In this document: piece by piece, positions 10,062-56,716 of the stretch | How the letters are laid out: each line of letters opens with the position of its first letter | Numbering within the stretch: position 1 is the first letter of the stretch | NCBI GenBank assembly: GCA_037969565.1 | Contig: JBBKXQ010000020.1 | Span: 19,180-83,179 of the forward strand | Source of the DNA: Acidimicrobiales bacterium | GTDB taxonomy: Bacteria > Actinomycetota > Acidimicrobiia > Acidimicrobiales > SZUA-35 | DNA: 64,000 nucleotides | Reading direction: 5' to 3' | The notes under the pieces: generated by a model | What the model was told of the DNA's origin: nothing | The model's database searches: none | The model's input: the letters and a program-made list of their open reading frames with translations, nothing else | Position numbers and translations under genes: made by a program

Positions 10062-12185
10062 TCAGAGCGTGGTTGCGTTCGAGATTTCTTTGAGGAGGTC
10101 GGCATTCGATTTGCTTCCCTCGAGACGTTCGACCAGGCGACGGGCAGCGTCAACGGCCGGTCCGTCGGCCTCGTCGACGGCCTCGGCCATCAGCCGGCGA
10201 AGGACGTCCACGGCCTCGAGGTCGTCGGGATCAACCAGTAGATCGGCACTCCGCGTGTGGGACAACTCGAGGTCGAGGTTCGGGAACACGCCTTCATCGG
10301 CGAGCCACGCGTCGAGATGCAACTCGGACGTGGCCGTGCCGCGGAACTCGTCGAACAGCGCCTCGTCGAACACTGCGCCGGTGCCAACGGTGATCGTGGC
10401 GAGGATCGTGAGCGATCCCGCTTCTTCCAGCTTTCGGGCCGATCCGAAGAAACGTTTGGTCGGGTGGAGAGCGCTGGCATCCACGCCCGTGATCGTGCGG
10501 CCGGTTGCGGGTGTGCCGAGACCATACGCACGGGCAATGGCGGTGAGTCCGTCGGCGATGATCACCACATCTTCGCCTGCCTCGACCATCCGTTTCGCCC
10601 GCTCGATGGTGAAATCGGCGAGAGCCACCTGCTCCTCGGGCGGAGCATCGAAGGTTGCCGCCCCGACCTCACCGTGGGTGAGTGCCTGTTCGATGGTGAC
10701 GACCTCTTCGGGCCGCCCGTCGAACTGAAGGACCATCAGGTGGACTTCCGGGTTGTTGGTTTCGATCGCCACGGCAATCTGCTTGATCAGTTCGGCCGAA
10801 CCAGCTTCGGGCGGGGCAACGATGAGACAACGCTGACCTTTACCGATCGGGGCGATCAGATCGACCAGTCGGGCCGCCGACGCCGTCGGAACGTCGAGCA
10901 TTTCGAGGCTGAGCCGTTCGAATGGGTAGACAGGGGTGAGATCTTCGAACCGAACCCGGGCCTTGCTGTCCTCTGGATCGGCGCCGTTGACACTCGTGAT
11001 GGTCTGGAGAGCCGGATTCTTCTCGTTGCGGTTCGCGGGCCGGGCCGTGCCTTCGACCAGGTCGCCTTTGCGGAGACCATGTTGGCGCGCCATCTTCACC
11101 GGCACATACACGTCCTCGGCGGACTGCAGATAGCCGTTGACACGGAGAAAGCCATACCCGTCCTCGCGGAGATCGAGATACCCCGACGACCGGATCGGTT
11201 CGAGGGTCGGGAGCTGTTCCTCGTCCCGATCCCGGCCTCGGCCTCGACGACGACGACGACGGTTTGCCGACTCGGAATCTTCGCCCTGGTTGTTCTCGGC
11301 GTCGACGACAGAGGACTCATTCGAGCCGCCATCGGAACCGGAATCGGTGGACCCACTCTTGGCCGAACTGTCCGATTGAGAGCCACTGCTCTGCGAACCA
11401 CTGCTCTGCGAACCACCGGTCTGGCCGTTTCGGCCCTGATTGCTGCCCCGCTGACTGCTGCCGCCCTGACTGCTGCCGCCCTGACTGCTGCCACCCTGGT
11501 TACCGCCGCCCTGATTGCTGCGGCCTTGACCCGAACGTGGGCTGCCGGTCTCCGTGCCCCCACCGTTCTCGATCTCAGTCTCCCATTCGGCCGGCGGCTC
11601 GCCGCCTTTGCCCCGGCGACGACGCGACGAATTGCCGCCTCCCGGACTCGATTCGCCGCGCTGACCGCCGGCGGGGCTGTTCCGGCCCGACCCCGATCGG
11701 TCTCCACTCGTTCGATCAGCACTCGTTCGATCAGCACTCGTTCGGTCAGCACTCGTTCGGTCAGCACTCGTTCGGTCAGCACTGCTTTGATCAGTCGAGG
11801 TGCGATCCGCTGCGTGATCAGTAGAACCTCGGCCGCCGGCATCCTGAGACGATCCGGGTTGGGCCGTAGACGTCGCGGCCCGTTCGGTCCCGAGACGCTC
11901 GCCGGCAGATTCGGAGCCCTGATCGGCCTCGGGCCGCTCTCCGGAATCAGACTTGCCGGAATCAGACTTGCCGGAATCAGATCGTTCCGACGCGGCGCTA
12001 CTTCCTGCAGTCACACCGCTTCCGGCGGTGACACCCGAGAGTTCCAGAATGCTGTCGATCAGCGCCGCCTTTGTCGCACGGCTTGCGATCTTCCCACCGA
12101 GCGCGGTGATGATGGTCTGGAGTTCGGATTTGTCTTTTTTCTGCAGGTCGACGCGTTCGACGGTCAGGTTGTCGCTCACGGACAC
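10062..12185 (-). CDS. rho: transcription termination factor Rho homologue with a long low-complexity N-terminal insertion and substituted ATPase motifs
   Basis: 707 aa. RNA-binding domain (GYGFLRV, YVPVKMARQHGLRKGDLV) and Rho C-domain scaffold (PIGKGQR, RPEEV, ARAYG, HPTKRFFGSARKLEEAGSLTILAT, VFPNLD) are present. Syntenic position thrC-rho-rpmE. GTG start at 12185 or 12179. Confidence 0.93.
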   Translation of the reverse strand: MSVSDNLTVERVDLQKKDKSELQTIITALGGKIASRATKAALIDSILELSGVTAGSGVTAGSSAASERSDSGKSDSGKSDSGERPEADQGSESAGERLGTERAATSTAQPGSSQDAGGRGSTDHAADRTSTDQSSADRTSADRTSADRTSADRTSADRTSGDRSGSGRNSPAGGQRGESSPGGGNSSRRRRGKGGEPPAEWETEIENGGGTETGSPRSGQGRSNQGGGNQGGSSQGGSSQGGSSQRGSNQGRNGQTGGSQSSGSQSSGSQSDSSAKSGSTDSGSDGGSNESSVVDAENNQGEDSESANRRRRRRGRGRDRDEEQLPTLEPIRSSGYLDLREDGYGFLRVNGYLQSAEDVYVPVKMARQHGLRKGDLVEGTARPANRNEKNPALQTITSVNGADPEDSKARVRFEDLTPVYPFERLSLEMLDVPTASAARLVDLIAPIGKGQRCLIVAPPEAGSAELIKQIAVAIETNNPEVHLMVLQFDGRPEEVVTIEQALTHGEVGAATFDAPPEEQVALADFTIERAKRMVEAGEDVVIIADGLTAIARAYGLGTPATGRTITGVDASALHPTKRFFGSARKLEEAGSLTILATITVGTGAVFDEALFDEFRGTATSELHLDAWLADEGVFPNLDLELSHTRSADLLVDPDDLEAVDVLRRLMAEAVDEADGPAVDAARRLVERLEGSKSNADLLKEISNATTL
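11383..11530. repeat. 15-bp tandem repeats inside rho (encode GSQSS and GGSSQ/GGNQG pentapeptide units)
   Basis: ccactgctctgcgaa x2 plus one degenerate unit, then about six units of ccctgactgctgccg-type sequence. Several units are identical. Confidence 0.9.
11705..11794. repeat. 15-bp tandem repeat x6 inside rho (encodes SADRT pentapeptide units)
   Basis: cactcgttcgatcag x2, cactcgttcggtcag x3, plus one degenerate unit, read directly from the sequence. Confidence 0.95.
11941..11985. repeat. 15-bp tandem repeat x3 inside rho (encodes SGKSD units)
   Basis: ccggaatcagacttg x2 then ccggaatcagatcgt. Confidence 0.9.
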
Positions 12186-16479: not shown

Positions 16480-18084
16480 CTACATCTGCTCCGGAGCATC
16501 GACACCGAGCAGGTCGAGACCGATGGCGATGCCGATACGACTCGCTTCGGTGAGCCACAGTCGCGCCTGCTGAAGCTCAGCGGGAACGTCGTCCCGCAAG
16601 ACGGGGCAGTCGTGATAGAAGCCCTGAAACGCCGAAGCGAGCTCGCGAACCCATGTGGTGATCTTCTGTGGGGCCCGTTCCACACAGGCCGCTTCGATCA
16701 CCTCGGGAAGGGCGAAGAGGTCGCGCAGAAGCTGCAACTCCCGTTCGTGTACGAGCAGTGAGAGGTCGGCTTCGCCCAGCGGGGCGCGCACGATTCCCCG
16801 TTTCGCTGCTTCCCGGCCGATCGAATGGATTCGAGCGTGAGCGTACTGGACATAGAAGACCGGATTGTCGGAGGACTGCTTCTTGAGGAGGTCGATGTCG
16901 ATCGTCTGTGACGTGTCGATGGATTGCATCAGGTAGGCAAACCGGGTGACATCGGGGCCGAGGTCGTCAACGAGCTCTTCGAGCAGAACCATGTCGCCCG
17001 AACGCTTGGAGAGCTTGACCTCTTCGCCGTTCCGGAGCAGCTTCACGTTCTGTCCGATGATGGCTTCGTATGACTCGGCGGGGTGGCCCAAGGCCTGGAG
17101 AGCGGCCCGCATCCGGGGCACATACCCGTGGTGGTCGGCGCCGAGAATGTCGATGATCAGATCGCCGCGGTCGTACTTGCTCTCGTGGTATCCGATGTCG
17201 GGCAGCATGTAGGTCATGGCGCCGTCGGACTTGATGAGCACCCGATCCTTGTCGTCACCGAAGTCGGAGGTCCGGAGCCAGGTTGCCCCCTCCTCCTCGT
17301 AGACCGCTCCGGTTTCTCGGAGCCGCTCGAGGGCGCTCATCATGTACCCCGCGTCGATCGATTCACGCTCGCTCGACCACGTGTCGAACTCGACATGCAT
17401 GGCGGCGAGTGCAGCCTTCTGATCGTCGAGGGCATGACGGATCGCCCACTCGGTCGGGTCGACGTCATCGGGCATCTCGCGGGCCCAGTCCCGGATGTAT
17501 TCACCTTTGTAACCGTCGTCGGAGACCTCGACGCCGTTCTTCCGAGCGAGAAGCGAGTTCACGAAATTACTGATCTGAACACCACGATCGTTGACGTAAG
17601 TTTCCGCATGGGGCCGAAAGCCGCATCGGGCGAAGATCCGGCAGAGCGAATCGCCATAGGTGGCCCACCGCCCGTGCCCGGCATGGAGCGGCCCGGTCGG
17701 ATTCGCCGAAACGAACTCGAGGTTGACCCGTAGCCCGCCGCCGAGGTCGGGGCTGGCGTAAGCCTTCTCGCCTTGGGCGACGACCTCGTTCAGGACGTCG
17801 TGAAGCCAGGTGTTCGCCAGCCGAAAATTCACGAAGCCCGGACCAGCCACCTCGAGCGCCACGACGTGTTCGGGCCGATTGGCCTCGAGATGACCAGCCA
17901 GCGCCTGTCCCACCTCACGAGGGTTCTTGCCGAGTTGTTTCGCACAAACGAGCGCCGCGTTCGTGCTCCAGTCACCGTGTTCCTGACGAGCCGGACGTTC
18001 GATCACGACGGCGTCGGGAACCTCGGCGACGCCGAGATCCTTCAGGGCTTGATGCACGGCAGCGAGCAAGTCGTCACGAATCAC
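16480..18084 (-). CDS. argS: arginine--tRNA ligase
   Basis: 534 aa, class I HIGH region (SANPTGPLHAGHGR) and overall ArgRS similarity. GTG start. Confidence 0.96.
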   Translation of the reverse strand: MIRDDLLAAVHQALKDLGVAEVPDAVVIERPARQEHGDWSTNAALVCAKQLGKNPREVGQALAGHLEANRPEHVVALEVAGPGFVNFRLANTWLHDVLNEVVAQGEKAYASPDLGGGLRVNLEFVSANPTGPLHAGHGRWATYGDSLCRIFARCGFRPHAETYVNDRGVQISNFVNSLLARKNGVEVSDDGYKGEYIRDWAREMPDDVDPTEWAIRHALDDQKAALAAMHVEFDTWSSERESIDAGYMMSALERLRETGAVYEEEGATWLRTSDFGDDKDRVLIKSDGAMTYMLPDIGYHESKYDRGDLIIDILGADHHGYVPRMRAALQALGHPAESYEAIIGQNVKLLRNGEEVKLSKRSGDMVLLEELVDDLGPDVTRFAYLMQSIDTSQTIDIDLLKKQSSDNPVFYVQYAHARIHSIGREAAKRGIVRAPLGEADLSLLVHERELQLLRDLFALPEVIEAACVERAPQKITTWVRELASAFQGFYHDCPVLRDDVPAELQQARLWLTEASRIGIAIGLDLLGVDAPEQM

Positions 18085-18165: not shown

Positions 18166-18546
18166 ATGGCAACCGATGAGAAGTTCTTCCCCTACGAAAT
18201 CGACAAGCGTTGGGCTCCCCTGCTGCTTCCGCTCGGCGTAGGCAAGAGCGACGGTGTCACGATCAGCGACGATCACCTGGTAGCAACATTTGGCTGGGTC
18301 AAGGTCCGGACGCCGCTGAGCAACGTCGACCACACCGAGGTCACCGGTCCGCATCGTTGGTACACCGCGGTCGGACTACGGATGAGCTTTGCCGATGACG
18401 GGATCACGTTCGGAACCAATCACCACAAGGCACTGTGCATCGGCTTCGTCGAGCCGATCCCGAGAGTCGTTGGTTTCCACACCCACTCCGCGTTGTCGGT
18501 GAGCGTCGCCGACCCGGCAGGACTTGCGGCCGCAATCCGACGCTGA
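18166..18546 (+). CDS. hypothetical protein (126 aa)
   Basis: ATG 18166 within the longer track ORF. High GC3. No family recognised. Confidence 0.5.
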   Translation: MATDEKFFPYEIDKRWAPLLLPLGVGKSDGVTISDDHLVATFGWVKVRTPLSNVDHTEVTGPHRWYTAVGLRMSFADDGITFGTNHHKALCIGFVEPIPRVVGFHTHSALSVSVADPAGLAAAIRR

Positions 18547-18570: not shown

Positions 18571-19107
18571 ATGGCTCGAATTCCCGACGTCGACCCGCTG
18601 GACGTTCCGGCCCGAGTGAAAGCAACGCTCGACACCCAAGCCGCCCAGTGGGGTGAACCGTTGGCCAATCACCTGCTCTATGCCCATCGGCCGTCGATCT
18701 TCAAAGGCGTTCGAGGGATGTGGTCGGCCATCGAAGAGTCGTCGCTGTTGGACCCAGCACTCGTGTCATTGGTCAATCGTCGCGTGGCGGCTCGAGTCGG
18801 CTGCGTGTTCTGACAGGACATCAACGCTGCGGTCGGCAGCACCCAAGGGCTCAGTGAGACCAAACTCGATTCGGTTGTCGTCGTGCCTCTCGATCGAGAC
18901 CAGTTCGACAGCCGAGAACTGGCGGCGCTGGACTACGCCGACGCCATGACCGTGGCTGATGTGGATGACCCGCTGTTCGCTCGAGTCTCCTCGGAGTTCA
19001 GTACCGAAGAAATCGTCGAACTCACCGAAGTGATCGCCTGGGAGAACGCGTCCGCCCGATTCAATCGGGCCCTCAGAGTCCACTCGCAGCATCTCTGGCG
19101 ACGCTGA
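18571..19107 (+). CDS. carboxymuconolactone decarboxylase / AhpD-like family protein with an in-frame TGA at 18811-18813 (candidate selenocysteine, CxxU; alternatively a nonsense pseudogene)
   Basis: Track ORFs 18571-18813 and 18883-19107 share one frame, and no stop other than this TGA lies between them. Joined they read ...RVAARVGCVF[TGA]QDINAAVG...ELTEVIAWENASARFNRAL, typical of the CMD family. Confidence 0.7.
18826..18840 (+). other. candidate bacterial SECIS apical hairpin
   Basis: Perfect 5-bp stem GCUGC/GCAGC with loop GGUCG. The stem starts 12 nt after the TGA, so the loop begins 17 nt after it. Confidence 0.4.
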
Positions 19108-19149: not shown

Positions 19150-19446
19150 CTACTTGCGTGGTAGCGCTGCCGCTTTGAGCGTGATCCCTGCGGCGTCGAT
19201 GATCCCGGCCTTCGATCCGATCGACAACGTGTTGGCGGCGAAGAGGTCCTCCTTGTTGATCATCGCCCAGCGAAATCCGTCGATCGACTTGAGTCGCTTG
19301 AAGCCCGCCTTCAGATCCTTGGTTTCCGCGATCACGACGATCGCCCCCTTGTCGAAGATCAGATCAGCCACGCCGGAAGCATCAGGCTGGGCTCCGAGCA
19401 CTGTCTGCGCCTGTGCTCTCAGGCCGGCGTCGTCAAAGCGAGCCAT
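19150..19446 (-). CDS. hypothetical 98-aa protein, last gene of the PTS operon
   Basis: The ATG is 1 nt after the EIIA-HPr stop. No family recognised. Confidence 0.55.
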   Translation of the reverse strand: MARFDDAGLRAQAQTVLGAQPDASGVADLIFDKGAIVVIAETKDLKAGFKRLKSIDGFRWAMINKEDLFAANTLSIGSKAGIIDAAGITLKAAALPRK

Positions 19447-20612: not shown

Positions 20613-20657
20613 CTGCGCTTGATTACTCTGCGCTTGATTACTCTGCGCTTGATTTTT
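20613..20657. repeat. 15-bp tandem repeat x3 in the EIIC-EIIB intergenic region
   Basis: ctgcgcttgattact x2 then ctgcgcttgattttt. Confidence 0.9.
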
Positions 20658-25871: not shown

Positions 25872-26869
25872 GCGTCGTCCTCCAACAACCGCTTGCCTTC
25901 GATCGAGGTCGTGACCGATACGGCTTGGTAGTCATGTTTGTCCGGTGGCGCGAGGGTGCTCATCGATCCAACGGTCGAGCGGCCCCATGCCAGAGCCGAT
26001 GCAAGTGCCTCTCGGCCCACGGCCCCACCAAGTAGAAAGCCGGCAAGAAGCGCGTCACCGGCTCCGACAGTGTTGACGATCCTGTCAGTTCGGGCCATTC
26101 CGTGAAAGACCCCGGTGTCGTCGACGAGCACCGCGCCATCGGAGCCGAGGCTGACGAGAACGGCACCGGCACCTCCGGCCCGCAATCGACCGGCGGCTTC
26201 GACCACATCACCGAGCGTCGAGATCGGCTGATCAACGATCGACGCGAGTTCCTGCCGATTTGGCTTCAAGAGAGAGCACGGCGTGCCCACCATGGCGAGC
26301 AACGCCGGACCACTCGTGTCGACGGCGATGTTCACGCCCTCGTTGCGAGCCGTTTCGGCGAGCCTGACATAGAAGCCGGAAGCAATTCCGGGCGGGAGGC
26401 TGCCACTGCCGACAATCCACGAGCTGTGAGCTGCCGCCTCACCGGCTTCGACCAGCAATGCTTCCTCGTCGTCGCCCGTGAGCGTCGGTCCGGGCTCGTT
26501 GAGCTTGGTGGTGACGCCCTGAGAATCGATGATGGTGATGTTCGTCCGAACCGCAGCCGAGGTATCGACAACGCGAATCTCGAGCGGGCCGCGCTCACCC
26601 TCGACCGTGCCCGCCGAACGCTGCTCGACCAAACTCTGCTCGACCAAACTCTGCTCGATCAGGCCGGTGAGGGCGAGACCACTGGCCGCTCCCGCCGGGA
26701 AGATGGCGCGGGTGTGAATTCCCTGGCTTGCAATCGACCGCGCAATGTTGATCCCCTTGCCCCCCGGTTCATCGGTGGTCGACTGGATTCGGATGACTTG
26801 GCCGGGTTCGAGTCGGTCGACCTCGATGGTGCGATCCACACTCGGGTTGGGTGTGACTGTGGTGATCAC
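25868..26869 (-). CDS. fruK: 1-phosphofructokinase-family sugar-phosphate kinase (FruK/LacC/PfkB)
   Basis: VTPNPSVDRT, GGKGINIA, LLKPNRQEL and TVGAGDALLAGF motifs. GTG 26869 forms a GTGA overlap with the upstream stop. Confidence 0.85.
   Translation of the reverse strand: MITTVTPNPSVDRTIEVDRLEPGQVIRIQSTTDEPGGKGINIARSIASQGIHTRAIFPAGAASGLALTGLIEQSLVEQSLVEQRSAGTVEGERGPLEIRVVDTSAAVRTNITIIDSQGVTTKLNEPGPTLTGDDEEALLVEAGEAAAHSSWIVGSGSLPPGIASGFYVRLAETARNEGVNIAVDTSGPALLAMVGTPCSLLKPNRQELASIVDQPISTLGDVVEAAGRLRAGGAGAVLVSLGSDGAVLVDDTGVFHGMARTDRIVNTVGAGDALLAGFLLGGAVGREALASALAWGRSTVGSMSTLAPPDKHDYQAVSVTTSIEGKRLLEDDA
26621..26665. repeat. 15-bp tandem repeat x3 inside fruK (encodes EQSLV-EQSLV-EQ)
   Basis: ctgctcgaccaaact x2 then ctgctcgatcaggcc. 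Confidence 0.9.
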
Positions 26870-28907: not shown

Positions 28908-31900
28908 GTGACTGACCGACCAATCAGCAGAATCGCGATCATCAACCGTGGTGAAGCCGCGGTCCGACTCATCCACGCCGTTGCCGAACTGAACCGTGAG
29001 ACCGACCATCAACTCACCACCATCGCCCTTCACACGTTCGCCGAACGCCGGGCGATGTTCGCCCGTATGGCTCATGAAACCCATCTGATCGCCTCGGATC
29101 GGATGAATCCCTACCTCGACTACGAGGTACTCGAACGGGCCCTGATCGCAACCGAGTCAGACGCGGCTTGGGTCGGATGGGGCTTCGTCGCCGAGCATCC
29201 CGAGTTCGTCGAGTTGTGCGACCGACTCGGCGTCACCTTCATCGGGCCTTCGGCCGACGTGATGCGATCGCTGGGCGACAAAATCGGGGCGAAAACGCTG
29301 GCCGAAACCGTCGGGGTACCGGTTGCTCCCTGGAGCGGAGGAAGTGTCGACTCCGTCGACGACGCCCGTCGCCATGCCGCCGACATCGGCTTTCCGTTGC
29401 TGATCAAGGCCACCGCCGGAGGCGGCGGTCGCGGTATTCGCCGAGTCGACCACGAGGACGAACTGGCCGGCGCCTTCGAACGGGCCAGCGACGAGGCCGA
29501 GAAGTCCTTTGGTGATCGAACGGTGTTCATGGAACATCTGGTCACCGGGGCGCGCCATGTCGAGGTCCAGATCGCGGCAGACGGCGTCGGCAACGCGTGG
29601 GCGCTCGGTGTGCGTGATTGCAGCATCCAACGACGCAACCAGAAGGTGCTCGAGGAATCATCGTCGCCGGTGTTGACGAGCGAGCAGAACGAAATGCTCG
29701 GCCGGGTGGCGATCGAACTCGTCGTTGCCGCCAACTATCAGAACGTCGGAACCGTCGAGTTCTTGTACGAGCCGAAGTCCCAGGCATTCTCGTTCCTCGA
29801 GGTGAACACTCGACTCCAGGTCGAACACCCGATCACCGAACTCACAACCGGGGTTGATCTGGTCAAGCTCCAGCTCCAGCTGGCCTCGGGCCTCCGCCTC
29901 GAAGGACCTCCCCCCGCAGTGAACGGTCACGCCATCGAGGCTCGACTCAACGCCGAAGACCCATCGTCGGGCTTTGCCCCAGCTTCCGGGGAAGTCATCG
30001 CCTTGAGATTTCCGTCCGGCCCCGGGGTCCGGGTCGATACCGGTATCAGCGAGGGTGATCGAATCCAGCCCGAGTACGACGCCATGGTGGCGAAGGTCAT
30101 GGCTTGGGGTCGCGACCGGGGCGAAGCTCGAGCTCGGCTGGTTCACGCACTCGAGGAAACGGTGGTTGCGATCGAAGGGGGCGCAACCAACAAGTCGTTC
30201 CTCCTGCACCTCCTCCACCGTCCCGAGGTGGTCGACGGAACAGCCGACACCGCATGGCTCGATCGACTCACCGCCGATGGATCCCATCTCGTCGAAGACC
30301 ATGCCGCGGTTGCCGTACTCGTTGCCGGAGCCGAGGCGTACCTCGAGGCCGCGGTGTACGCCCGAACCGCGTTCTTCGCCACCGCCGCTCGGGGTCGGCC
30401 GCGCTCGACCCATGAGCCAGTGACAACGGTCGACTGCCGGCTGAGGGGTGAGCAGTACCGACTCGCCATCCAGCGAGTGAGTCCTGACGTCTACCACTTC
30501 GAAGTCGACGGGAATCTGGTTTCGATGTCGATCGATCCGGTGAACGAGTGGGAGTCTCGGGTGCGGGTCGGCGGGCGTACGCACCGAATCATGTCGGTCA
30601 CCCAAGGCGGCGATCATCTCATCGAGGTCGACCACATCACCCACCGCGTGAGCCGCGACGACGCCGGACGAATTCGTTCGCCCTCGCCATCGCTGGTCAT
30701 CGCCGTGAACGTCGCTCCTGGGGACTCGGTCCGCAAGGGTGACACGCTCGTCGTCCTCGAGGCCATGAAGATGGAAACCGCAATCACGGCGCCGTTCGAC
30801 GGTGTGGTCGTGGAGGTCATGACCGGCCCCAGCATCCAGGTGGATGCCGGTGCGGTCCTCATCACCATCGAAGCGGGAGGTGACGAAGACGACCTACCGA
30901 CTCCGGGCAACCGGATCGGTTTCAGCACTCTGGTCGTCGATCAGCCGGCCGAACCGGTGCGGGAACAACACCTCAGGTTGCTCGAGGAGATTCGCTGGAC
31001 CGTCTTGGGTTTCGACACACAGCCGGGAGTGGTCAAGTCCTTGGCGGCACAGCTGCTGTCGGCCCAACAGGGCGGACAATCCGACGATCCCGAGATCATC
31101 GCCGCCCGTTTGCGTGTGCTCTCGGCCTTCAGCGACGTCAGTTCGTTGGCTCGTAACCGCCGCGTCGACCAATCAGGAGACGAGGAGGCCCACAATCCCA
31201 AGGAGTTCCTCCACAAATACCTTCGTTCGCTCGACATCGAGGCGGAAGGACTCCCCTCGTCATTCCGAACCAAGCTCGAGCGGGCGTTCGCCCACTATGG
31301 CGTCGACAGTCTGGATCACACCCTCGATCTCGAGAGGGCGGCGTTCCGGCTGTTCAACGCACAGCACGAGTCGGCCTCCCACGAACCGTTACTGGCCGCC
31401 GTTCTGCATGGCCTCCGTCTCGATCCGAACGATCTCAGCCCAGAAACCTCCACCGCAGTCCTGCGAACGCTCGACGAATTCGTTCCTACCACCGAGCTCC
31501 GCTTTCCGAATCTCGGCTCCGCCGCTCGCAACGTTCGTTACTTCACGTTCGAGCAACCGGCAGCCGCCGCTCGCAAGCGGGGGGTCCTCGATGAGATGCG
31601 TCGCCATCTCGAGTCGATGCGGTCGGGCGACGCAAACCCCGAGCACCTACGGGCGCTGGTCAATTGCCCCGAGGCGGTGGTCGAACTCCTGGCCGATGAC
31701 GGCGGATCGAGCGAGCGCCACGACCCCATCCTCGACGTGATGTTCGGCCGTCTCTACCGCGTGAAAACTCTTCACGACGTCGAGACCAGCAACATGCCGG
31801 CCAGTGACCTGCCGGCGAGCGACCGTGGGATCGACGGACGTTCGTTCATTGCCGCGGCCTACCGAACCGACGGGGAACTGCGTCACGTCGTCGCAACGAT

Positions 31901-48044: not shown

Positions 48045-48098
48045 AAGCGATTCTTCCGACGGCATCCGGGAGCGGTCGAGACATTGGAACGAATTTTG

Positions 48099-48170
48099 TG
48101 CCCTCGGCAGGATTCGAACCTGCGCTCACGCCTCCGGAGGGCGATGCTCTATCCCCTGAGCTACGAGGGC
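48099..48170 (-). tRNA. tRNA-Arg (anticodon CCG)
   Basis: Hand-folded cloverleaf: acceptor GCCCTCG/CGAGGGC, D arm GCTC-AGGGGATA-GAGC, anticodon loop CT-CCG-GA, T arm GCAGG-TTCGAAT-CCTGC. One T-T mismatch closes the anticodon stem. No encoded CCA. Confidence 0.85.
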
Positions 48171-48322
48171 CTGGACCGTTGGACTCTAGCGCCGGATGGT
48201 GAATGGCCTACAAGCCTTTCCGAACTTGTGATCCGGCCCGCATCGTGGTGGGCGAGAGGTGAGCAACGGTTTTCCTTCCCGAACCTAAACTGATCTGCGA
48301 CTACTACCGACAAGAAGACGTG

Positions 48323-49228
48323 ATGACTTATCAACTCTCCGACGTGGGCGCCCTCGAGGCCGAGGCCATCCACATCATCCGGGAAGTGGCGGCGGAATTC
48401 GAACGTCCGGCACTCTTGTTCTCTGGCGGCAAGGATTCGATCCTGCTGCTCCACATGGCGATCAAGGCGTTCGCCCCGGCGAAGGTCCCCTTCCCGATCA
48501 TGCACGTCGACACGGGCCACAACTTCGATGAGGTGATCGAGTACCGCGATCGGCGCGTGGCCGAAACCGGAGTACGGCTGATCGTGGCCTCGGTTCAAGA
48601 GGCCATCGACAAGGGTCTCGTGGCCGAAGAAACCGGTCCCCGGGCCTCCCGCAATCTCCTCCAAACGGCCGCCCTCCTCGAAGGAATCGAATCAAACAAA
48701 TTCGATGCACTCTTCGGCGGTGCCCGGCGGGACGAAGAGAAAGCTCGGGCCAAGGAGCGGGTCTACAGTTTCCGCGATGAATTCGGACAGTGGGACCCCA
48801 AGGGTCAACGGCCCGAATTGTGGAATCTCTACAACGGGCGTCACAGCCAGGGTGAACACTTCCGCATCTTCCCCATTTCCAACTGGACCGAACTCGATGT
48901 GTGGCATTACATCGCCGAGCAAGAAATCGACGTACCCGACATCTACTTCGCCCACCAACGCGAGGTGTTCCAGCGCGATGGCATGTGGTTGGCCGACACG
49001 CCGTACATCACTCGTATGGAGGGGGAAGAACTCGAGACCAAGCAGGTTCGGTTCCGTACCATCGGTGACGCGAGTTGCACCGGCGCCGTGGAATCAGACG
49101 CCGACACGATCGAAAAGGTGATCGAAGAAGTGGGGGCGACTCGGGTGACGGAACGGGGCGCAACCCGCGCCGACGATCGACGCACCGAGGCAGCCATGGA
49201 GGATCGGAAGAAGGAGGGCTACTTCTGA
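48323..49228 (+). CDS. cysD: sulfate adenylyltransferase subunit 2
   Basis: 301 aa. PAPS-reductase-fold motif LFSGGKDS, and ends in the canonical ...KKEGYF. A GTG at 48320 is an alternative start. Confidence 0.95.
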   Translation: MTYQLSDVGALEAEAIHIIREVAAEFERPALLFSGGKDSILLLHMAIKAFAPAKVPFPIMHVDTGHNFDEVIEYRDRRVAETGVRLIVASVQEAIDKGLVAEETGPRASRNLLQTAALLEGIESNKFDALFGGARRDEEKARAKERVYSFRDEFGQWDPKGQRPELWNLYNGRHSQGEHFRIFPISNWTELDVWHYIAEQEIDVPDIYFAHQREVFQRDGMWLADTPYITRMEGEELETKQVRFRTIGDASCTGAVESDADTIEKVIEEVGATRVTERGATRADDRRTEAAMEDRKKEGYF

Positions 49229-49319
49229 TGCACCGCCCCACCAGCTCCTCCGTATCCGATCCGACCAGACGAACAACCGGATCGGAAGAAGGAGGGCTAC
49301 TTCTGATGCACCGCCCCAC
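49201..49319. repeat. 41-bp perfect direct repeat (49201-49241 and 49279-49319), a duplication of the cysD stop/restart junction
   Basis: ggatcggaagaaggagggctacttctgatgcaccgccccac occurs twice, 78 bp apart. Confidence 0.95.
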
Positions 49320-49376
49320 TGTTTCCTCGCCAGCGAAGCGTTCGATCGACCGACACAACGAATCAAGGATTTTCTG

Positions 49377-50630
49377 ATGGAGTTACTCCGACTTGCCACT
49401 GCCGGTTCGGTCGACGACGGCAAGAGCACCCTCATCGGGCGATTGCTGTTCGACTCGAAGTCGATCTTCGAGGATCAACTCGAAGCCATCGAGGCAACGA
49501 GCCTTGCCCGGGGCAGCGAAACCGTCGACCTCGCCTTGCTCACCGACGGCTTGCGAGCCGAACGCGAACAAGGCATCACGATCGACGTGGCCCACCGCTA
49601 CTTCGCCACACCAAGGCGCAAGTTCATCATCGGCGACACCCCAGGGCACATCCAATACACCCGCAACATGGTCACGGGGGCCTCGACGGCCGACCTCGCG
49701 ATCGTGTTGATCGATGCCCGAAAAGGCGTCCTCGAACAGTCCCGCCGTCACGCGTTCATCGCGTCGCTCCTCCGTATCCCCCACATCGTGCTTGCGGTGA
49801 ACAAGATGGACCTGGTCGATTACGACCAGGAGGTCTTCGAGGCCATTCGGGAAGACTTCACCGCCTTTGCGGCCAAGCTCGACGTCAGCGATCTCACGTT
49901 CATTCCGATGTCGGCCCTCGACGGCGACAACGTCGTCGACCGCTCGGCCAACATGCCCTGGTACGAAGGCTCGACCCTGCTGCACCATCTCGAGGAGGTG
50001 CACATCGCATCCGACCGCAACTTGGTCGACGCTCGATTCCCGGTGCAGTACGTCATCCGACCGCAGACGGCCGAACAGCCTGATTACCGCGGGTATGCCG
50101 GCACGGTTGCCGGTGGGGTTTTCAAGCCGGGAGACGAAGTCCTCGTGCTCCCGTCCGGTTTCACCAGCACGATCGAAGCCGTCGAAACGGCCGACGGACC
50201 TCTCAAAGAGGCATTCGCCCCGATGGCCGTCACGATCCGTCTGACCGACGAGATCGACATCAGCCGGGGCGACATGATCTGTCGCCCCAACAACAAGCCC
50301 GAGGTCGGCCAGGACATCGAGGCGATGATCTGTTGGATGTCCGAAGCCTCCGAGCTACGGCCCAATGCCAAGCTGGCGCTCAAGCACACCACCCACTCGG
50401 TTCGTGCGCTCGTCAAGAATCTGCACTACCGGCTCGACATCAACACGCTCCATCGTGACGAGACAGCCGGATCGTTGTCGTTGAACGAGATCGGCCGGGT
50501 GCGTCTGCGCACCACACAGCCGCTCTATTTCGACGAGTACCGACGCAATCGGGCCACCGGCAGCTTCATCCTCATCGATGAAGTCACCAACATCACCGTG
50601 GGTGCCGGCATGATCGTCGGAGCAGCGTGA
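49377..50630 (+). CDS. cysN: sulfate adenylyltransferase subunit 1 (GTPase)
   Basis: 417 aa. G1 motif GSVDDGKST, DTPGH and NKMD. Confidence 0.95.
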   Translation: MELLRLATAGSVDDGKSTLIGRLLFDSKSIFEDQLEAIEATSLARGSETVDLALLTDGLRAEREQGITIDVAHRYFATPRRKFIIGDTPGHIQYTRNMVTGASTADLAIVLIDARKGVLEQSRRHAFIASLLRIPHIVLAVNKMDLVDYDQEVFEAIREDFTAFAAKLDVSDLTFIPMSALDGDNVVDRSANMPWYEGSTLLHHLEEVHIASDRNLVDARFPVQYVIRPQTAEQPDYRGYAGTVAGGVFKPGDEVLVLPSGFTSTIEAVETADGPLKEAFAPMAVTIRLTDEIDISRGDMICRPNNKPEVGQDIEAMICWMSEASELRPNAKLALKHTTHSVRALVKNLHYRLDINTLHRDETAGSLSLNEIGRVRLRTTQPLYFDEYRRNRATGSFILIDEVTNITVGAGMIVGAA

Positions 50631-51235
50631 ACGCAGGCTCCTCCGAGCCAGTCGCAACGAACATCCAGTGGCATCCGAGCGCCGTGGATCGTTCCGTCCG
50701 GTCGGCCGCCACCGGAACCTCGGGAATGACCCTGTGGTTCACGGGTCTCTCGGGCTCGGGCAAGTCAACCGTTGCCGTCGAGCTGGAGAAGCAACTCATT
50801 GCCGCCAGCCGACCCGCCTACCTTCTCGATGGCGACAACCTACGGTTCGGTCTGAACGGCGATCTCGGCTTTTCGGCCGCCGACCGCGACGAGAACGTGC
50901 GACGGGTGGCCCATGTCGCCAGACTCTTTGCCGACTCGGGTTTGATCGCCCTCGTCCCATTGATCAGTCCCTACAGGGCAGCCCGTCAACTGGCTCGGGA
51001 TCTTCATGACGCCGCCGGGCTCCCGTTCGCCGAGGTCTTCGTCGATACCCCACTCGAGATCTGCGAAGCCCGAGATCCGAAGGGCCTCTACAAGAAGGCC
51101 AGAGCAGGAGAGATCACCGGTATGACCGGAATCGACGATCCCTACGAAGCGCCCCAACATCCGGAGTATCGGGTCACCCCCGACGACGGTTCGGCTTCGG
51201 AGATCGCTGCGCTCTTGCTTCGCCAACTCGCTTGA
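50627..51235 (+). CDS. cysC: adenylylsulfate (APS) kinase
   Basis: P-loop GLSGSGKST. GTG start forms a GTGA overlap with the cysN stop. Confidence 0.92.
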   Translation: MNAGSSEPVATNIQWHPSAVDRSVRSAATGTSGMTLWFTGLSGSGKSTVAVELEKQLIAASRPAYLLDGDNLRFGLNGDLGFSAADRDENVRRVAHVARLFADSGLIALVPLISPYRAARQLARDLHDAAGLPFAEVFVDTPLEICEARDPKGLYKKARAGEITGMTGIDDPYEAPQHPEYRVTPDDGSASEIAALLLRQLA

Positions 51236-52001: not shown

Positions 52002-52645
52002 GAGTTGACTCCACTCTTCGCCACGGCTTCGAGAAGCCTCCGGTGCAATTCTGCGGGTCGTCCGCTGCGTACGAGGTCGAGTGCCTCGCCATCCAAGACG
52101 TGGGCCCAACCCGACACCTCGGTCGGATGGCCCGCCTCGCGCACAATGGCTCGGACCTGCGTGGCGATCTCGGCGACGGCGACGGTGTCGTCATCGAGTA
52201 ACGAGTCGATCCGACGCCGAATCCAACTCGCAACCGCCGGGCTCGATCCTCCGGTGGCGATGCCAACCGTGATCGGACCTCGCCTACTGACGGCGGGAAG
52301 CACCACAGAACAATGGTCGGGATCGTCGGCGGCATTGCACCAGATCCGACGAGCTTCGGCCTCGGCGAACACCGTCCCATCGACGTGCGGGATCCCGGTG
52401 GCGGTGACCACGAGCCACATACCCTCGAGGTCGGAGGGGACGAACGACCGCCGATGCCGGGCGGCGACCTCGACCGCTGCCATGTCCGAGCTGTGCTTTG
52501 GGGCAACCACGGTGACCAAGGCCCCCTGGCCAACATAGGCCTGGGCCTTCCGAGCGGCAATCCGACCCGCGCCGACCACGAGAATCGAACGGCCCTCGAC
52601 GCGAAGACCCACGGGAACGAGCGCCAACGGAGTCGAAGCGCTCAT
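51998..52645 (-). CDS. precorrin-2 dehydrogenase / sirohydrochlorin ferrochelatase (CysG N-domain / SirC-like)
   Basis: LVVGAGRIAARKA Rossmann motif, 215 aa. ATGA overlaps on both sides. Confidence 0.8.
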   Translation of the reverse strand: MSASTPLALVPVGLRVEGRSILVVGAGRIAARKAQAYVGQGALVTVVAPKHSSDMAAVEVAARHRRSFVPSDLEGMWLVVTATGIPHVDGTVFAEAEARRIWCNAADDPDHCSVVLPAVSRRGPITVGIATGGSSPAVASWIRRRIDSLLDDDTVAVAEIATQVRAIVREAGHPTEVSGWAHVLDGEALDLVRSGRPAELHRRLLEAVAKSGVNS

Positions 52646-53271
52646 TGGTGGAGTCCGCATTCGGTCTTTTCCTCGCCCTGCCAACGACCGGCCCGGGCGT
52701 CGGAGCCCTCGGCCACGGGCGTCGTGCACGGCTTGCAACCGATGGACGGGTAGCCGCGGTCGCGAAGCGGGTTCACGATGATGTCGTTGTTGGTTTCGTA
52801 CTGGGTCACTTCGTCATCGGTCCAGGCCACGATCGGATTGATCTTCACCAGGCCGCGACGATCCGTCTCGATCTGGGGGGTGTCGGACCTCGACGGGCCA
52901 TCCGCTCGACGAAGGCCACTGAGCCATGCCCGCTTGCCCTTCAGGGCCACATCGAGTTGATCCACCTTGTGTTCGCTGCAGCAGAACCCAGGCTGCCCCA
53001 CGTCGGGGAGATGGCGCCACGGCACGACAACTCGAAGGTTGGGCCGGTACCGCTCAGCGATCCGCATCATCGTTTCGATGGTCTCGTTGAAGTGAAAGCC
53101 GGTGTCGATGAACGCGATCTCGATACCCGGGTCGACCCCGAGCGCGAGGTCGACGAGAACAGCGTCCTGCCCGGAACAGAGAAGGGTGAGGTCGGTTCCG
53201 AACTCGGCTACGGCCCACGCAATGGCCGCCTCGGCCGTCCGATCACCGACCCTCTCGCCCACGACCGTCAT
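52642..53271 (-). CDS. cysH: adenylylsulfate (APS) reductase, thioredoxin-dependent, Fe-S type
   Basis: CC pair (GFCCSEH) plus the CxxC pair (GCKPCT) and the catalytic ECGLH tail. Confidence 0.9.
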   Translation of the reverse strand: MTVVGERVGDRTAEAAIAWAVAEFGTDLTLLCSGQDAVLVDLALGVDPGIEIAFIDTGFHFNETIETMMRIAERYRPNLRVVVPWRHLPDVGQPGFCCSEHKVDQLDVALKGKRAWLSGLRRADGPSRSDTPQIETDRRGLVKINPIVAWTDDEVTQYETNNDIIVNPLRDRGYPSIGCKPCTTPVAEGSDARAGRWQGEEKTECGLHQ

Positions 53272-54983
53272 GACGCCACACTCGATCGTTGGAATGTGGG
53301 TAGTCCCACCGCCAGCGCAGCCACGCCGAGCCGGTCGGCCCAATCGCCGAACGCTTCGCCGTCGGTTCGACTCTGGCTGAACCGCTCCAAGAGTGGCGCC
53401 AACACGTCCTCGAGTTTGGAGAAGGGAACGGACTCGACGAGCAGGACGGCGAGCCGGGAGCCACCAGGACTGCCACCGACGAACAGGTCATAGGCCGTCT
53501 TGGTTCGTCCGACGATTCCCAGCTCGGCCACATAGGGGCGAGAACACCCATTGGGGCACCCCGTCATCCTCGTCTCGATCGACACATCGGCGAGACGTCG
53601 TTCGACGAGGAGCTGATCGAGAAGATCGGTCAGTTCGGGCAACACCCGTTCTGCTTCGCCCAATGCCTGCCCACAGGTCGGGAGTGCGGGGCAGGCCATC
53701 GACGATAGGACACTGAGCGAGAGGTGCTTGGCTTGTGGCACGCCGAGTTCGGTGAGCAAGGCCTCGACGGCAGCCTTGTCAGCCTCTTCGATTCCGCAGA
53801 GCAGCAGGTCTTGGTGTGGGGTGAGCCGGATCTCGTTGGCGTACCGCTCGAGGATCTGACGCACCGCAGTGCGGCGCTTCGTCTCTTTCGTATCGAGCAG
53901 GCGTCCGGACGGCACCGGTAGTCCCAGATACCACCGACCGTCGTCTTGATGATGCCACCCCAGGTGTTCGCGGGCCCGGCCCCACGCGGGCAGAGCAATC
54001 GGATCGTCGAAGGAACGGCCCAGCCGACGCTCCACCTCTTGTCGAAGCCAACCGATGCCACGCGCTTCGACGAGATACTTCAGACGGGCATGACTGCGAT
54101 CGTCCCGGTTGCCCTCGTCCCGAAAAACACCGACCATCGCTTCGACCACGTCCGCGATGTCTCGGTCCGGCACCCAGACCATCGGATCACCGAGCCTCGG
54201 GAAGGTCGTTGCGTCCTTGTGTGTACGGCCGAGGCCACCACCGGCGAGAACAACGGCGCCGAGTTCACCATCGGCGTTGGGTACGAGAACGAGGCCCACA
54301 TCCTGGCTGTAGACGTCGATCGAATTGTCACCGGGCCACGCAATGCCCACCTTGAACTTCCGGGGGAGATAGGAGTCACCGTAGATCGGCTCGGTCGTGT
54401 CGTCCGACTCGGCGATCGGACCAGCGGAAACCGCTCGTTCCCCATCCAGCCACAGCTCCCAATAGGCGGCCGACTGCGGACGGAATCGATTGGCCAAGGC
54501 ACGAGCCAACGAATCGAGGCGACCCAGATCACGTCCGGCATCGGGCGCCGAGGAGACCATGACATTGCGCACGACGTCGCCACAGGCGGCATAGGTCGTC
54601 ACGAGCCCACGATTCAGCGATCCGACCAGCTCTTTGAGATCCCCTTTGTGGACGAAGTGGTACTGAACGCCCTGGCGAGAGGTGAGTCGGAGCGAGCCGT
54701 CGCCAACGTCGGCCAGGCGGTCGATCTCGAACCACTGCGAGGGCCGCAGCAGGCCACCGGGTACCGAACACCGAACCATGCAGGAGTAGGCGAGTGTGCG
54801 TTTCGCACGGGCGAGCTCACCCCGATGATCACGGTCGTCCTGCTGGTAGATGCCGTGAAACTTGAGGAGGTGTCCGGACTCGAGTGGAAAGGTCGACATT
54901 CCGTCGGCCAACTCTTCGACCAACGAGCCTCGAAGGTGCCCGCTCGACGCTTTGATGCCTTCCACCGGGGTTGCCATGACCAT
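53268..54983 (-). CDS. sir: ferredoxin-dependent sulfite reductase (NirA/Sir hemoprotein)
   Basis: About 571 aa. Sirohaem/Fe-S Cys motifs CPALPTCGQA and TGCPNGCSRPY. Start ATG 54983 or 54977 (the track TTG is at 54992). Confidence 0.92.
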   Translation of the reverse strand: MVMATPVEGIKASSGHLRGSLVEELADGMSTFPLESGHLLKFHGIYQQDDRDHRGELARAKRTLAYSCMVRCSVPGGLLRPSQWFEIDRLADVGDGSLRLTSRQGVQYHFVHKGDLKELVGSLNRGLVTTYAACGDVVRNVMVSSAPDAGRDLGRLDSLARALANRFRPQSAAYWELWLDGERAVSAGPIAESDDTTEPIYGDSYLPRKFKVGIAWPGDNSIDVYSQDVGLVLVPNADGELGAVVLAGGGLGRTHKDATTFPRLGDPMVWVPDRDIADVVEAMVGVFRDEGNRDDRSHARLKYLVEARGIGWLRQEVERRLGRSFDDPIALPAWGRAREHLGWHHQDDGRWYLGLPVPSGRLLDTKETKRRTAVRQILERYANEIRLTPHQDLLLCGIEEADKAAVEALLTELGVPQAKHLSLSVLSSMACPALPTCGQALGEAERVLPELTDLLDQLLVERRLADVSIETRMTGCPNGCSRPYVAELGIVGRTKTAYDLFVGGSPGGSRLAVLLVESVPFSKLEDVLAPLLERFSQSRTDGEAFGDWADRLGVAALAVGLPTFQRSSVAS

Positions 54984-56577: not shown

Positions 56578-56647
56578 AGCCCGCAAGACGCTAGCGCTCG
56601 GTTTGACCAGGCTCGTGGCAGGTGCCAACTGACCGGCCAGGATCAGT

Positions 56648-56716
56648 CTCCAAAATCAGGGCTCCAGAATCAAGGCTCCAGAATCAGGGCTCCAGAATCA
56701 GGGCTCCGAATCAGGG
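56648..56716. repeat. 14-bp tandem repeat, about 5 units
   Basis: ctcca(a/g)aatca(g/a)gg units. The last unit overlaps the stop of the acyl-CoA dehydrogenase gene. Confidence 0.9.

Follow-up and report, generated by a model that had tools for sequence, protein, structure and literature searches.

The window analysed here, a 64-kb stretch of DNA from an uncultured Acidimicrobiales lineage, contains a gene for an AhpD/CMD-like protein with an in-frame TGA codon, and the question is whether this codon ends the protein or is decoded as selenocysteine (Sec). The gene is very probably intact and encodes a 178-aa, YciW-related oxidoreductase of the AhpD/CMD fold, in which the UGA at codon 81 is decoded as Sec by means of a hairpin directly downstream.

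Gene structure and genetic code

A sequence-only reading of the window had noted that the open reading frames at 18571-18813 and 18883-19107 lie in one frame with a single TGA between them, and the frame check agrees. The complete gene, a predicted selenoprotein gene, occupies positions 18571 to 19107 of the forward strand and comprises 178 sense codons, as delimited by the list of open reading frames, the family model NF053654, the Pfam CMD domain and an AlphaFold2 model. It starts with ATG at 18571, runs for 80 codons to the in-frame UGA, predicted to be the codon of Sec81 (18811-18813, forward strand), continues for 97 codons, and closes with a genuine TGA stop codon in the same frame (19105-19107, forward strand). 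The local reading is GGC TGC GTG TTC TGA CAG GAC ATC AAC GCT GCG GTC GGC AGC, i.e., G-C-V-F-(TGA)-Q-D-I-N-A-A-V-G-S.

Comparisons below refer to 81 sequences, namely the window gene and the best 80 of 541 relatives, 541 being the number of genomes that encode a relative when each GTDB species is represented by one genome. The TGC at 18802-18804 (forward strand) encodes Cys78, the first residue of the CxxU motif, which is Cys in 81/81 sequences and is placed there by alignment with structures in the PDB.

TGA stops eight of ten other confident window genes that were checked, and none of them has an internal TGA. Since the genes of the window usually end in TGA, the genetic code is standard, and a code 4/25 reassignment was rejected on this ground. 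A scan for in-frame TGA junctions with coding-like sequence on both sides returned 15 junctions, including the selenoprotein gene. Of the other junctions, those looked at fall either between neighbouring genes (such as hom|thrC and thiolase|FAA hydrolase) or in frames antisense to prfA, and they yielded no second selenoprotein candidate.

Protein family, fold and active site

The joined product had been described as AhpD/CMD-like, and both family searches and structure prediction agree with that description. The Pfam CMD family (PF02627) matches with an E-value of 2.4e-7 and 31.1 bits, against a gathering cutoff of 23. The only full-length family match is to NCBIfam NF053654 ("GroundWater_YciW", YciW-related (seleno)protein), which aligns residues 1-178 to model positions 1-179 of 179 with an E-value of 1.1e-66. 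TIGR01926, the model given for "AhpD-like protein" in a 2026 review (PMC13188914), matches at an E-value of 0.0018 only.

With Cys substituted for Sec, the window protein obtains 224 bits against NF053654, short of the equivalog cutoff of 310. Scores among translated relatives form a continuous series (206, 247, 255, 279, 304, 345 and 360 bits). Core members such as the loci L026 (345) and L070 (360) and the Cys-form homologue P0010 (329) lie above the cutoff, and those scoring above it include Acidobacteriota and Ktedonobacteraceae. Besides the window protein, the Acidimicrobiales locus L002 (255), the planctomycete L003 (206), and L018 (304), L020 (247) and L031 (279) from other phyla lie below it. 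Given its score of 224 against 310, the window gene represents a divergent Acidimicrobiales branch of NF053654, and the model would miss this branch at its current cutoff.

The AlphaFold2 model of the window protein has a pLDDT of 90.4, and Foldseek aligned it to AhpD-like structures 2gmy, 7xw1, 2prr, 6k40 and Bmp8 with TM scores between 0.72 and 0.86. The Cys-form structures compared were Atu0492 (2gmy), PA0269 (7xw1, 2o4d and 2ijc), 2prr, a Deinococcus radiodurans protein (6k40) and the debrominase Bmp8 (6ohi). The all-helical fold is common to these solved proteins and the window protein, mostly at an rmsd of 1.5-2.3 Å and up to 3.8 Å, with a sequence identity of 16-26%. Their redox motif lies at the matching place, with Cys where the window protein has the predicted Sec.

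In a PDB sequence search, the TGA column aligns with the second Cys of the CxxC motif, both in Atu0492 (2gmy, NGCAFCVDMH) and in Pseudomonas aeruginosa AhpD/PA0269 (2o4d/7xw1, NGCAYCVNMH). The earlier placement of the TGA exactly at the second redox Cys is hence borne out by 2gmy, 2o4d and 7xw1, and also by P0007 and P0010, the two homologues with Cys in this column that are described below. The CxxCxxxH signature, on the other hand, is not reproduced: the window protein reads C-V-F-U-Q-D-I-N, and the His found four residues past the second Cys in 2gmy, 2o4d and 7xw1 (CVDMH, CVNMH) is replaced by Asn in 81/81 sequences. Speculatively, this invariant Asn might reflect a selenol that needs no general base.

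The family-invariant residues lie mostly 3' of the TGA (W157, E158, N159, R166, R169 and others). The 97 codons that follow the TGA in the window gene are intact and keep every one of these residues. The part after the TGA is therefore translated, as it contains the residues that the family conserves most strongly.

Conservation of the TGA among relatives

TGA stands at the aligned codon, with an open and conserved frame after it, in every one of the 80 fetched relatives. They include Acidimicrobiales/Acidimicrobiia, Acidobacteriota/Thermoanaerobaculia, Chloroflexota/Thermomicrobiales, Rubrobacteraceae, Methylomirabilota, Planctomycetota (including the complete genome of Saltatorellus ferox) and gammaproteobacterial Azotimanducaceae, among others. 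The nearest relatives are 56-64% identical to the window protein. The sequence-only reading had pointed to relatives as the place where retention of both TGA and hairpin should be visible, and all 80 fetched relatives keep both, with 96% of hairpin pairs formed.

Gene callers split such genes. Among 105 protein-database matches, 91 comprise only the C-terminal part, with the gene call beginning after the stop; the column is translated as Trp ("W") in 10 and is Cys in two. One of the "W" entries, a JGI protein, was checked on its contig (L086), and its codon is TGA, i.e., a mistranslation. The two Cys entries are the metagenomic homologues P0007 and P0010, whose codon is TGC.

The loci of these Cys-form homologues (L084:1501-2115 and L085:258-800) still have a SECIS-type hairpin. 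P0007 keeps GCUGCCGUGAGCAGC, while the hairpin of P0010 is GCUGCCAUGGGCAGC, its loop G-U having become A-U through a Val-to-Met change. These hairpins resemble "fossil" SECIS elements that have outlasted a recent conversion of Sec to Cys.

The alternative offered in the sequence-only reading was a recent TGC-to-TGA nonsense mutation, to which a sequencing error may be added, either of which would make the gene a pseudogene. The two codons do differ by a single base, and P0007 and P0010 show that Cys-form homologues exist. However, TGA is found in 81/81 sequences across many phyla, the database matches are distributed as given above, and synonymous sites within the hairpin are under selection, as described in the next section. 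The universal TGA, the intact frame after it and the normal use of TGA as a stop exclude a recent nonsense mutation as well as a reassigned code, and the probability we leave to a pseudogene of this origin is negligible.

The database entries also raise the possibility that two polypeptides are made, an 80-aa N-terminal product and an independently initiated C-terminal one, as most gene callers annotate. The 91 C-terminal entries, of about 100 aa, and an in-frame GTG 3' of the internal TGA, at 18883, accord with this. Yet the codons of the QDINAAVGS... segment, which precede the first possible start, are the most conserved of the family and show the synonymous variation typical of translation; no start codon 3' of the TGA is conserved, and a single CMD fold spans the junction. 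Separate initiation is, in our judgment, extremely improbable, and translation through the UGA is the reading carried forward.

Structure and selection of the downstream hairpin

The predicted SECIS hairpin, GCUGC-GGUCG-GCAGC, lies at 18826-18840 of the forward strand and is supported by its pairing, covariation, spacing and energy. Its 5-bp stem is formed by 18826-18830 and 18836-18840. Within the loop, positions 18831 and 18834 pair with each other, enclosing the G-U at 18832-18833, and the G at 18835 is unpaired. The stem begins 12 nt after the TGA (11 nt in most relatives) and the loop begins 17 nt after it, so that the perfect hairpin claimed at this spacing is present as described. The 21-nt element has a free energy of -9.2 kcal/mol, and a 40-nt stretch one of -10.3 kcal/mol.

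Taken as a single sequence, the evidence for this hairpin is weak. In the window, which has 63% G+C, 6.5% of TGA trinucleotides are followed by a perfectly paired hairpin with 5 bp or more that starts 10-15 nt downstream, and 1.9% by one with GT in its loop. Against shuffled sequences, the 21-nt element has a folding z-score of -2.0, which rises to about 0 (+0.1) when 66 nt are folded. The significance of the hairpin therefore comes from the comparison with relatives and not from single-sequence statistics.

RNAalifold, whose energy model is unsuited to so short a stem, returned no consensus pairs for the alignment of 81 sequences over 48 nt. Pairs were counted on the stated structure instead, with columns numbered from the U of the UGA. 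Over the 81 sequences, standard pairs occupy 96.1% of the pair positions (columns 16-20/26-30 plus 21/24), and shifting the 3' partner by one to three columns as a control reduces pairing to 25-67%. G22 and U23 are invariant. Columns 21 and 24, where an Ala and a Val codon have their third positions, covary (C-G in 46 sequences, G-C in 26, A-U in four, and no pair in five), with 30 double-sided changes. The pair 18/28 is U-A in 72 sequences, U-G in five and C-G in two, the latter being compensatory.

Synonymous sites show the same constraint. The Ala codon at +5 is GCU in 77/81 sequences, although in the rest of these genes only 9.6% of Ala codons are GCU. The third positions of codons +4, +5, +8 and +9, in or beside the stem, have an entropy of 0.23-0.31 bit, compared with about 1.2-1.9 bits for similar four-fold sites away from the stem. 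In three Acidimicrobiales loci (L001, L005 and L010) the peptide V-G-S has changed to V-A-A, yet the RNA still reads GCUGC-GGUC-GCAGC. The covariation, the synonymous constraint and the V-A-A loci together demonstrate selection on the RNA structure and not on the peptide alone. The hairpin of the window is a minimal version, with 5 bp and without the C15-G31 pair common to most relatives (column 31 is A).

The consensus for bacterial SECIS elements (bSECISearch; PMC13188914, Fig. 2A) consists of an apical loop of 3-9 nt on an upper stem of 4-16 bp; a G among the first two nucleotides of the loop, typically as G[G/U] between a pairing N1 and N2; 16-37 nt between UGA and loop; and a free energy of at most -7.5 kcal/mol. 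The window element agrees on all four points, with a 5-bp stem that carries the 5-nt loop G-G-U-C-G, a distance of 17 nt (18814-18830) and -9.2 kcal/mol. An Rfam scan of 18760-18920 found no matching model, only a chance miRNA match with an E-value of 8.1; the Rfam SECIS models represent bacterial SECIS elements poorly (Actinomarina preprint, bioRxiv 10.64898/2026.04.03.716425). Recognition of the hairpin by a SECIS model, which the sequence-only reading had raised as a check, held for the published consensus and not for Rfam.

UGA followed by C is a leaky stop context, and C follows the UGA in 71 of the 79 sequences tallied. Together with the "W" translations produced by JGI gene callers, this would suit a UGA read through without Sec, either by near-cognate Trp or Cys or under a reassigned code, with the hairpin acting as a pause or read-through stimulator. 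However, TGA ends the window gene itself as well as the eight genes counted above and is internal nowhere else, as expected of the standard code; the residue aligned to this column is a catalytic Cys rather than Trp; and the invariant loop G-U and its spacing fit the model of a SelB-dependent SECIS (PMC13188914, PMC8659212). Read-through of this kind is considered very unlikely, and Sec insertion directed by the hairpin remains the preferred reading.

Selenocysteine machinery and genomic context

No selA, selB, selD or tRNA-Sec was found in the 64-kb window by ARAGORN, Rfam or tblastn. ARAGORN and Rfam returned only a tRNA-Arg, tRNA-Arg(CCG) at 48098-48170, and tblastn of Escherichia coli SelA, SelB and SelD against the window and the 80 homologue loci matched only the GTPase domain of CysN. 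A search for Acidimicrobiia SelA with the E. coli SelA query gave Enterobacteriaceae matches only.

These results have to be weighed against the possibility that the gene is a relic, i.e., that the family is a true selenoprotein family whose host here has recently lost the Sec machinery, so that only the 80-aa fragment is made and the gene is decaying. The lack of Sec-machinery genes and tRNA-Sec in the window would fit such a history, as would the window hairpin, the weakest variant with its 5 bp and A at column 31, and the fact that the Sec trait is frequently lost in bacteria (PMC1794560). On the other side, the frame is intact for all 97 codons beyond the TGA, with the family-invariant residues retained, and G22-U23 and the G-C intraloop pair are intact as well. 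At 56-64% identity to the nearest relatives, the TGA, hairpin and frame have been kept over a long independent history. Moreover, a 64-kb window would be expected to miss four unlinked genes. A relic is hence an improbable explanation.

The nearest relative of the window's ArgS, with 75% identity, is found in the Acidimicrobiales MAG CALLIQ01, which also has a gene with TGA and hairpin (L017). In at least one order of the Acidimicrobiia, the Actinomarinales, selA, selC and selD are reported from 84/84 complete genomes, with a divergent selB below threshold (bioRxiv 10.64898/2026.04.03.716425). Sec use in the lineage is indirectly supported by CALLIQ01 and its L017 gene, by the sel genes of the Actinomarinales, and by the retention of TGA, hairpin and 97 codons at the identity given above. 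The gene itself would imply that this uncultured Acidimicrobiales lineage uses selenocysteine.

The selenoprotein gene is flanked by argS (16480-18084, reverse strand) and, directly, by a 126-aa ORF (18170-18546, forward strand) and a 98-aa ORF (19150-19446, reverse strand), neither of which has a Pfam match at E <= 0.001. No neighbour is conserved across the 80 loci, and the 126-aa and 98-aa ORFs stand beside the gene in 0/80 relatives. Given these unconserved neighbours, the gene seemingly stands alone, and its context offers no clue to the substrate. Nearby are phosphotransferase system (PTS) genes, of which an EIIA-HPr fusion was assigned by Pfam, and EIIB and EIIC from sequence only.

The tandem repeat at 20613-20654 sits between the EIIB and EIIC genes. 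It is one of several, the others being at 26617-26658, 31786-31824 and 56637-56716, with periods of 14-15 nt and 2.6-5.9 copies. Arrays of a 15-nt tandem repeat (2.3-6.5 copies) also occur at 11383-11981, encoding the pentapeptides SADRT, GGSSQ, SGSQS and similar ones. They belong to an N-terminal insertion, of low complexity and about 300 aa long, within a 707-aa Rho homologue (10062-12185, reverse strand), which matches NF006886 with 400 bits against a cutoff of 315. Relative to E. coli Rho, the Walker A segment APPKAGKT reads APPEAGSA, LLIDERPEEV reads LQFDGRPEEV, and TGSKMDE reads TGAVFDE. The protein appears to lack the catalytic residues of the ATPase, and may be an ATPase-dead Rho or a paralogue.

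A sulfate-assimilation cluster with cysD, cysN and cysC lies at 48320-51235 (forward strand) and 52642-53343 (reverse strand). The CysN and APS-kinase genes overlap by 4 nt, and nearby ORFs are likely to encode siroheme synthesis and a PAPS/APS-reductase-like protein, to judge by their sequences.

Proposed mechanism and implications

By analogy with known SECIS elements, the exposed G-U of the hairpin loop would recruit SelB-GTP-Sec-tRNA(Sec) while the UGA is in the ribosomal A site, and the Sec so delivered would outcompete RF2 at UGA 81. Should selenium or SelB be limiting, RF2 would terminate translation and leave the 80-aa fragment. In the protein, the resulting Cys78-x-x-Sec81 motif lies at the start of a helix and would cycle between the selenolate/thiol and selenenylsulfide states. 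From the chemistry of the AhpD family, Sec81 would be the attacking selenolate and Cys78 the resolving thiol, and the substrate reduced would be a peroxide, a disulfide or a similar oxidised compound.

A wider reading starts from the observation that the 15-nt element, contained in the N-A-A-V-G-S codons, is near-identical in the 80 fetched species, which belong to many phyla. We consider it possible, if doubtful, that GCUGC-N-GU-N'-G-GCAGC is a naturally minimal, host-independent SelB-binding module and that, with the His-to-Asn replacement, the chemistry of the protein is distinct from that of classical AhpD. The only variable features of such a mini-SECIS may be the intraloop N-N' pair, clamping a flipped-out G-U, and the optional bulged G on the 3' side. 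If this were true, horizontal transfer of the gene would carry along a "universal mini-SECIS", which might serve as a portable tag for Sec insertion.

Because the AhpD-like selenoprotein family has already been described, the window gene is a routine missed annotation of a divergent Acidimicrobiales-branch member, and leaves the general knowledge of selenoproteins unchanged. As a modest bonus, a minimal bacterial SECIS can be studied in these 81 sequences, an unusually clean natural dataset with covariation at synonymous sites.

Comparison with known SECIS elements and selenoproteins

The window protein shares with NF053654 the CxxU column, the ...QDINAAVGS... segment and the C-terminal AWENAS-x-FNRALR motif. 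The core members L026, L070 and P0010 likewise have the hairpin, with the altered loop already mentioned for P0010.

The E. coli SECIS begins 11 nt from the UGA and has conserved U17, G23 and U24, of which U17 and G23 contact SelB (PMC8659212). The sequence-only reading had likened the loop and spacing of the window hairpin to those of E. coli fdhF, and the actual fdhF sequence confirms this resemblance. Its UGA is codon 140, and its loop GGUC occupies nt 22-25, within 1 nt of the GGUC at nt 21-24 in the window, the hairpins starting after 11 and 12 nt, respectively. In both cases the hairpin is directly 3' of the UGA, and the loop G-U that the window shares with fdhF is invariant in the window family. 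In contrast, the bulged U of the fdhF 5' arm (U17) is absent from the window element, in which GCUGC pairs without a bulge. Unlike fdhF, the window element lacks a lower stem reaching the UGA, the stem being only 5-7 bp, and an extra unpaired G is found 3' of the loop, except in L001, L005 and L010. These comparisons suggest that the window element works in the manner of the fdhF SECIS, without being a copy of it.

At the protein level, the sequence-only reading had taken AhpD-like proteins to be a described selenoprotein family, and the literature bears this out. CxxU selenoproteins of the AhpD-like (COG2128/YciW) type were described in 2005 from the Sargasso Sea (Zhang, Fomenko and Gladyshev; PMC1088965) and were also found in the GOS metagenomes (Zhang and Gladyshev 2008, PMC2398784). 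In the sea, few selenoprotein families are more abundant (PMC1088965, PMC2398784, PMC9312934). The window branch can be likened to this marine family, whose sequences are marine reads and whose role is presumed to be redox, by description: both have the AhpD/CMD fold, a CxxU motif with Sec as its second redox residue, and a bacterial SECIS element with a small G-containing loop directly downstream.
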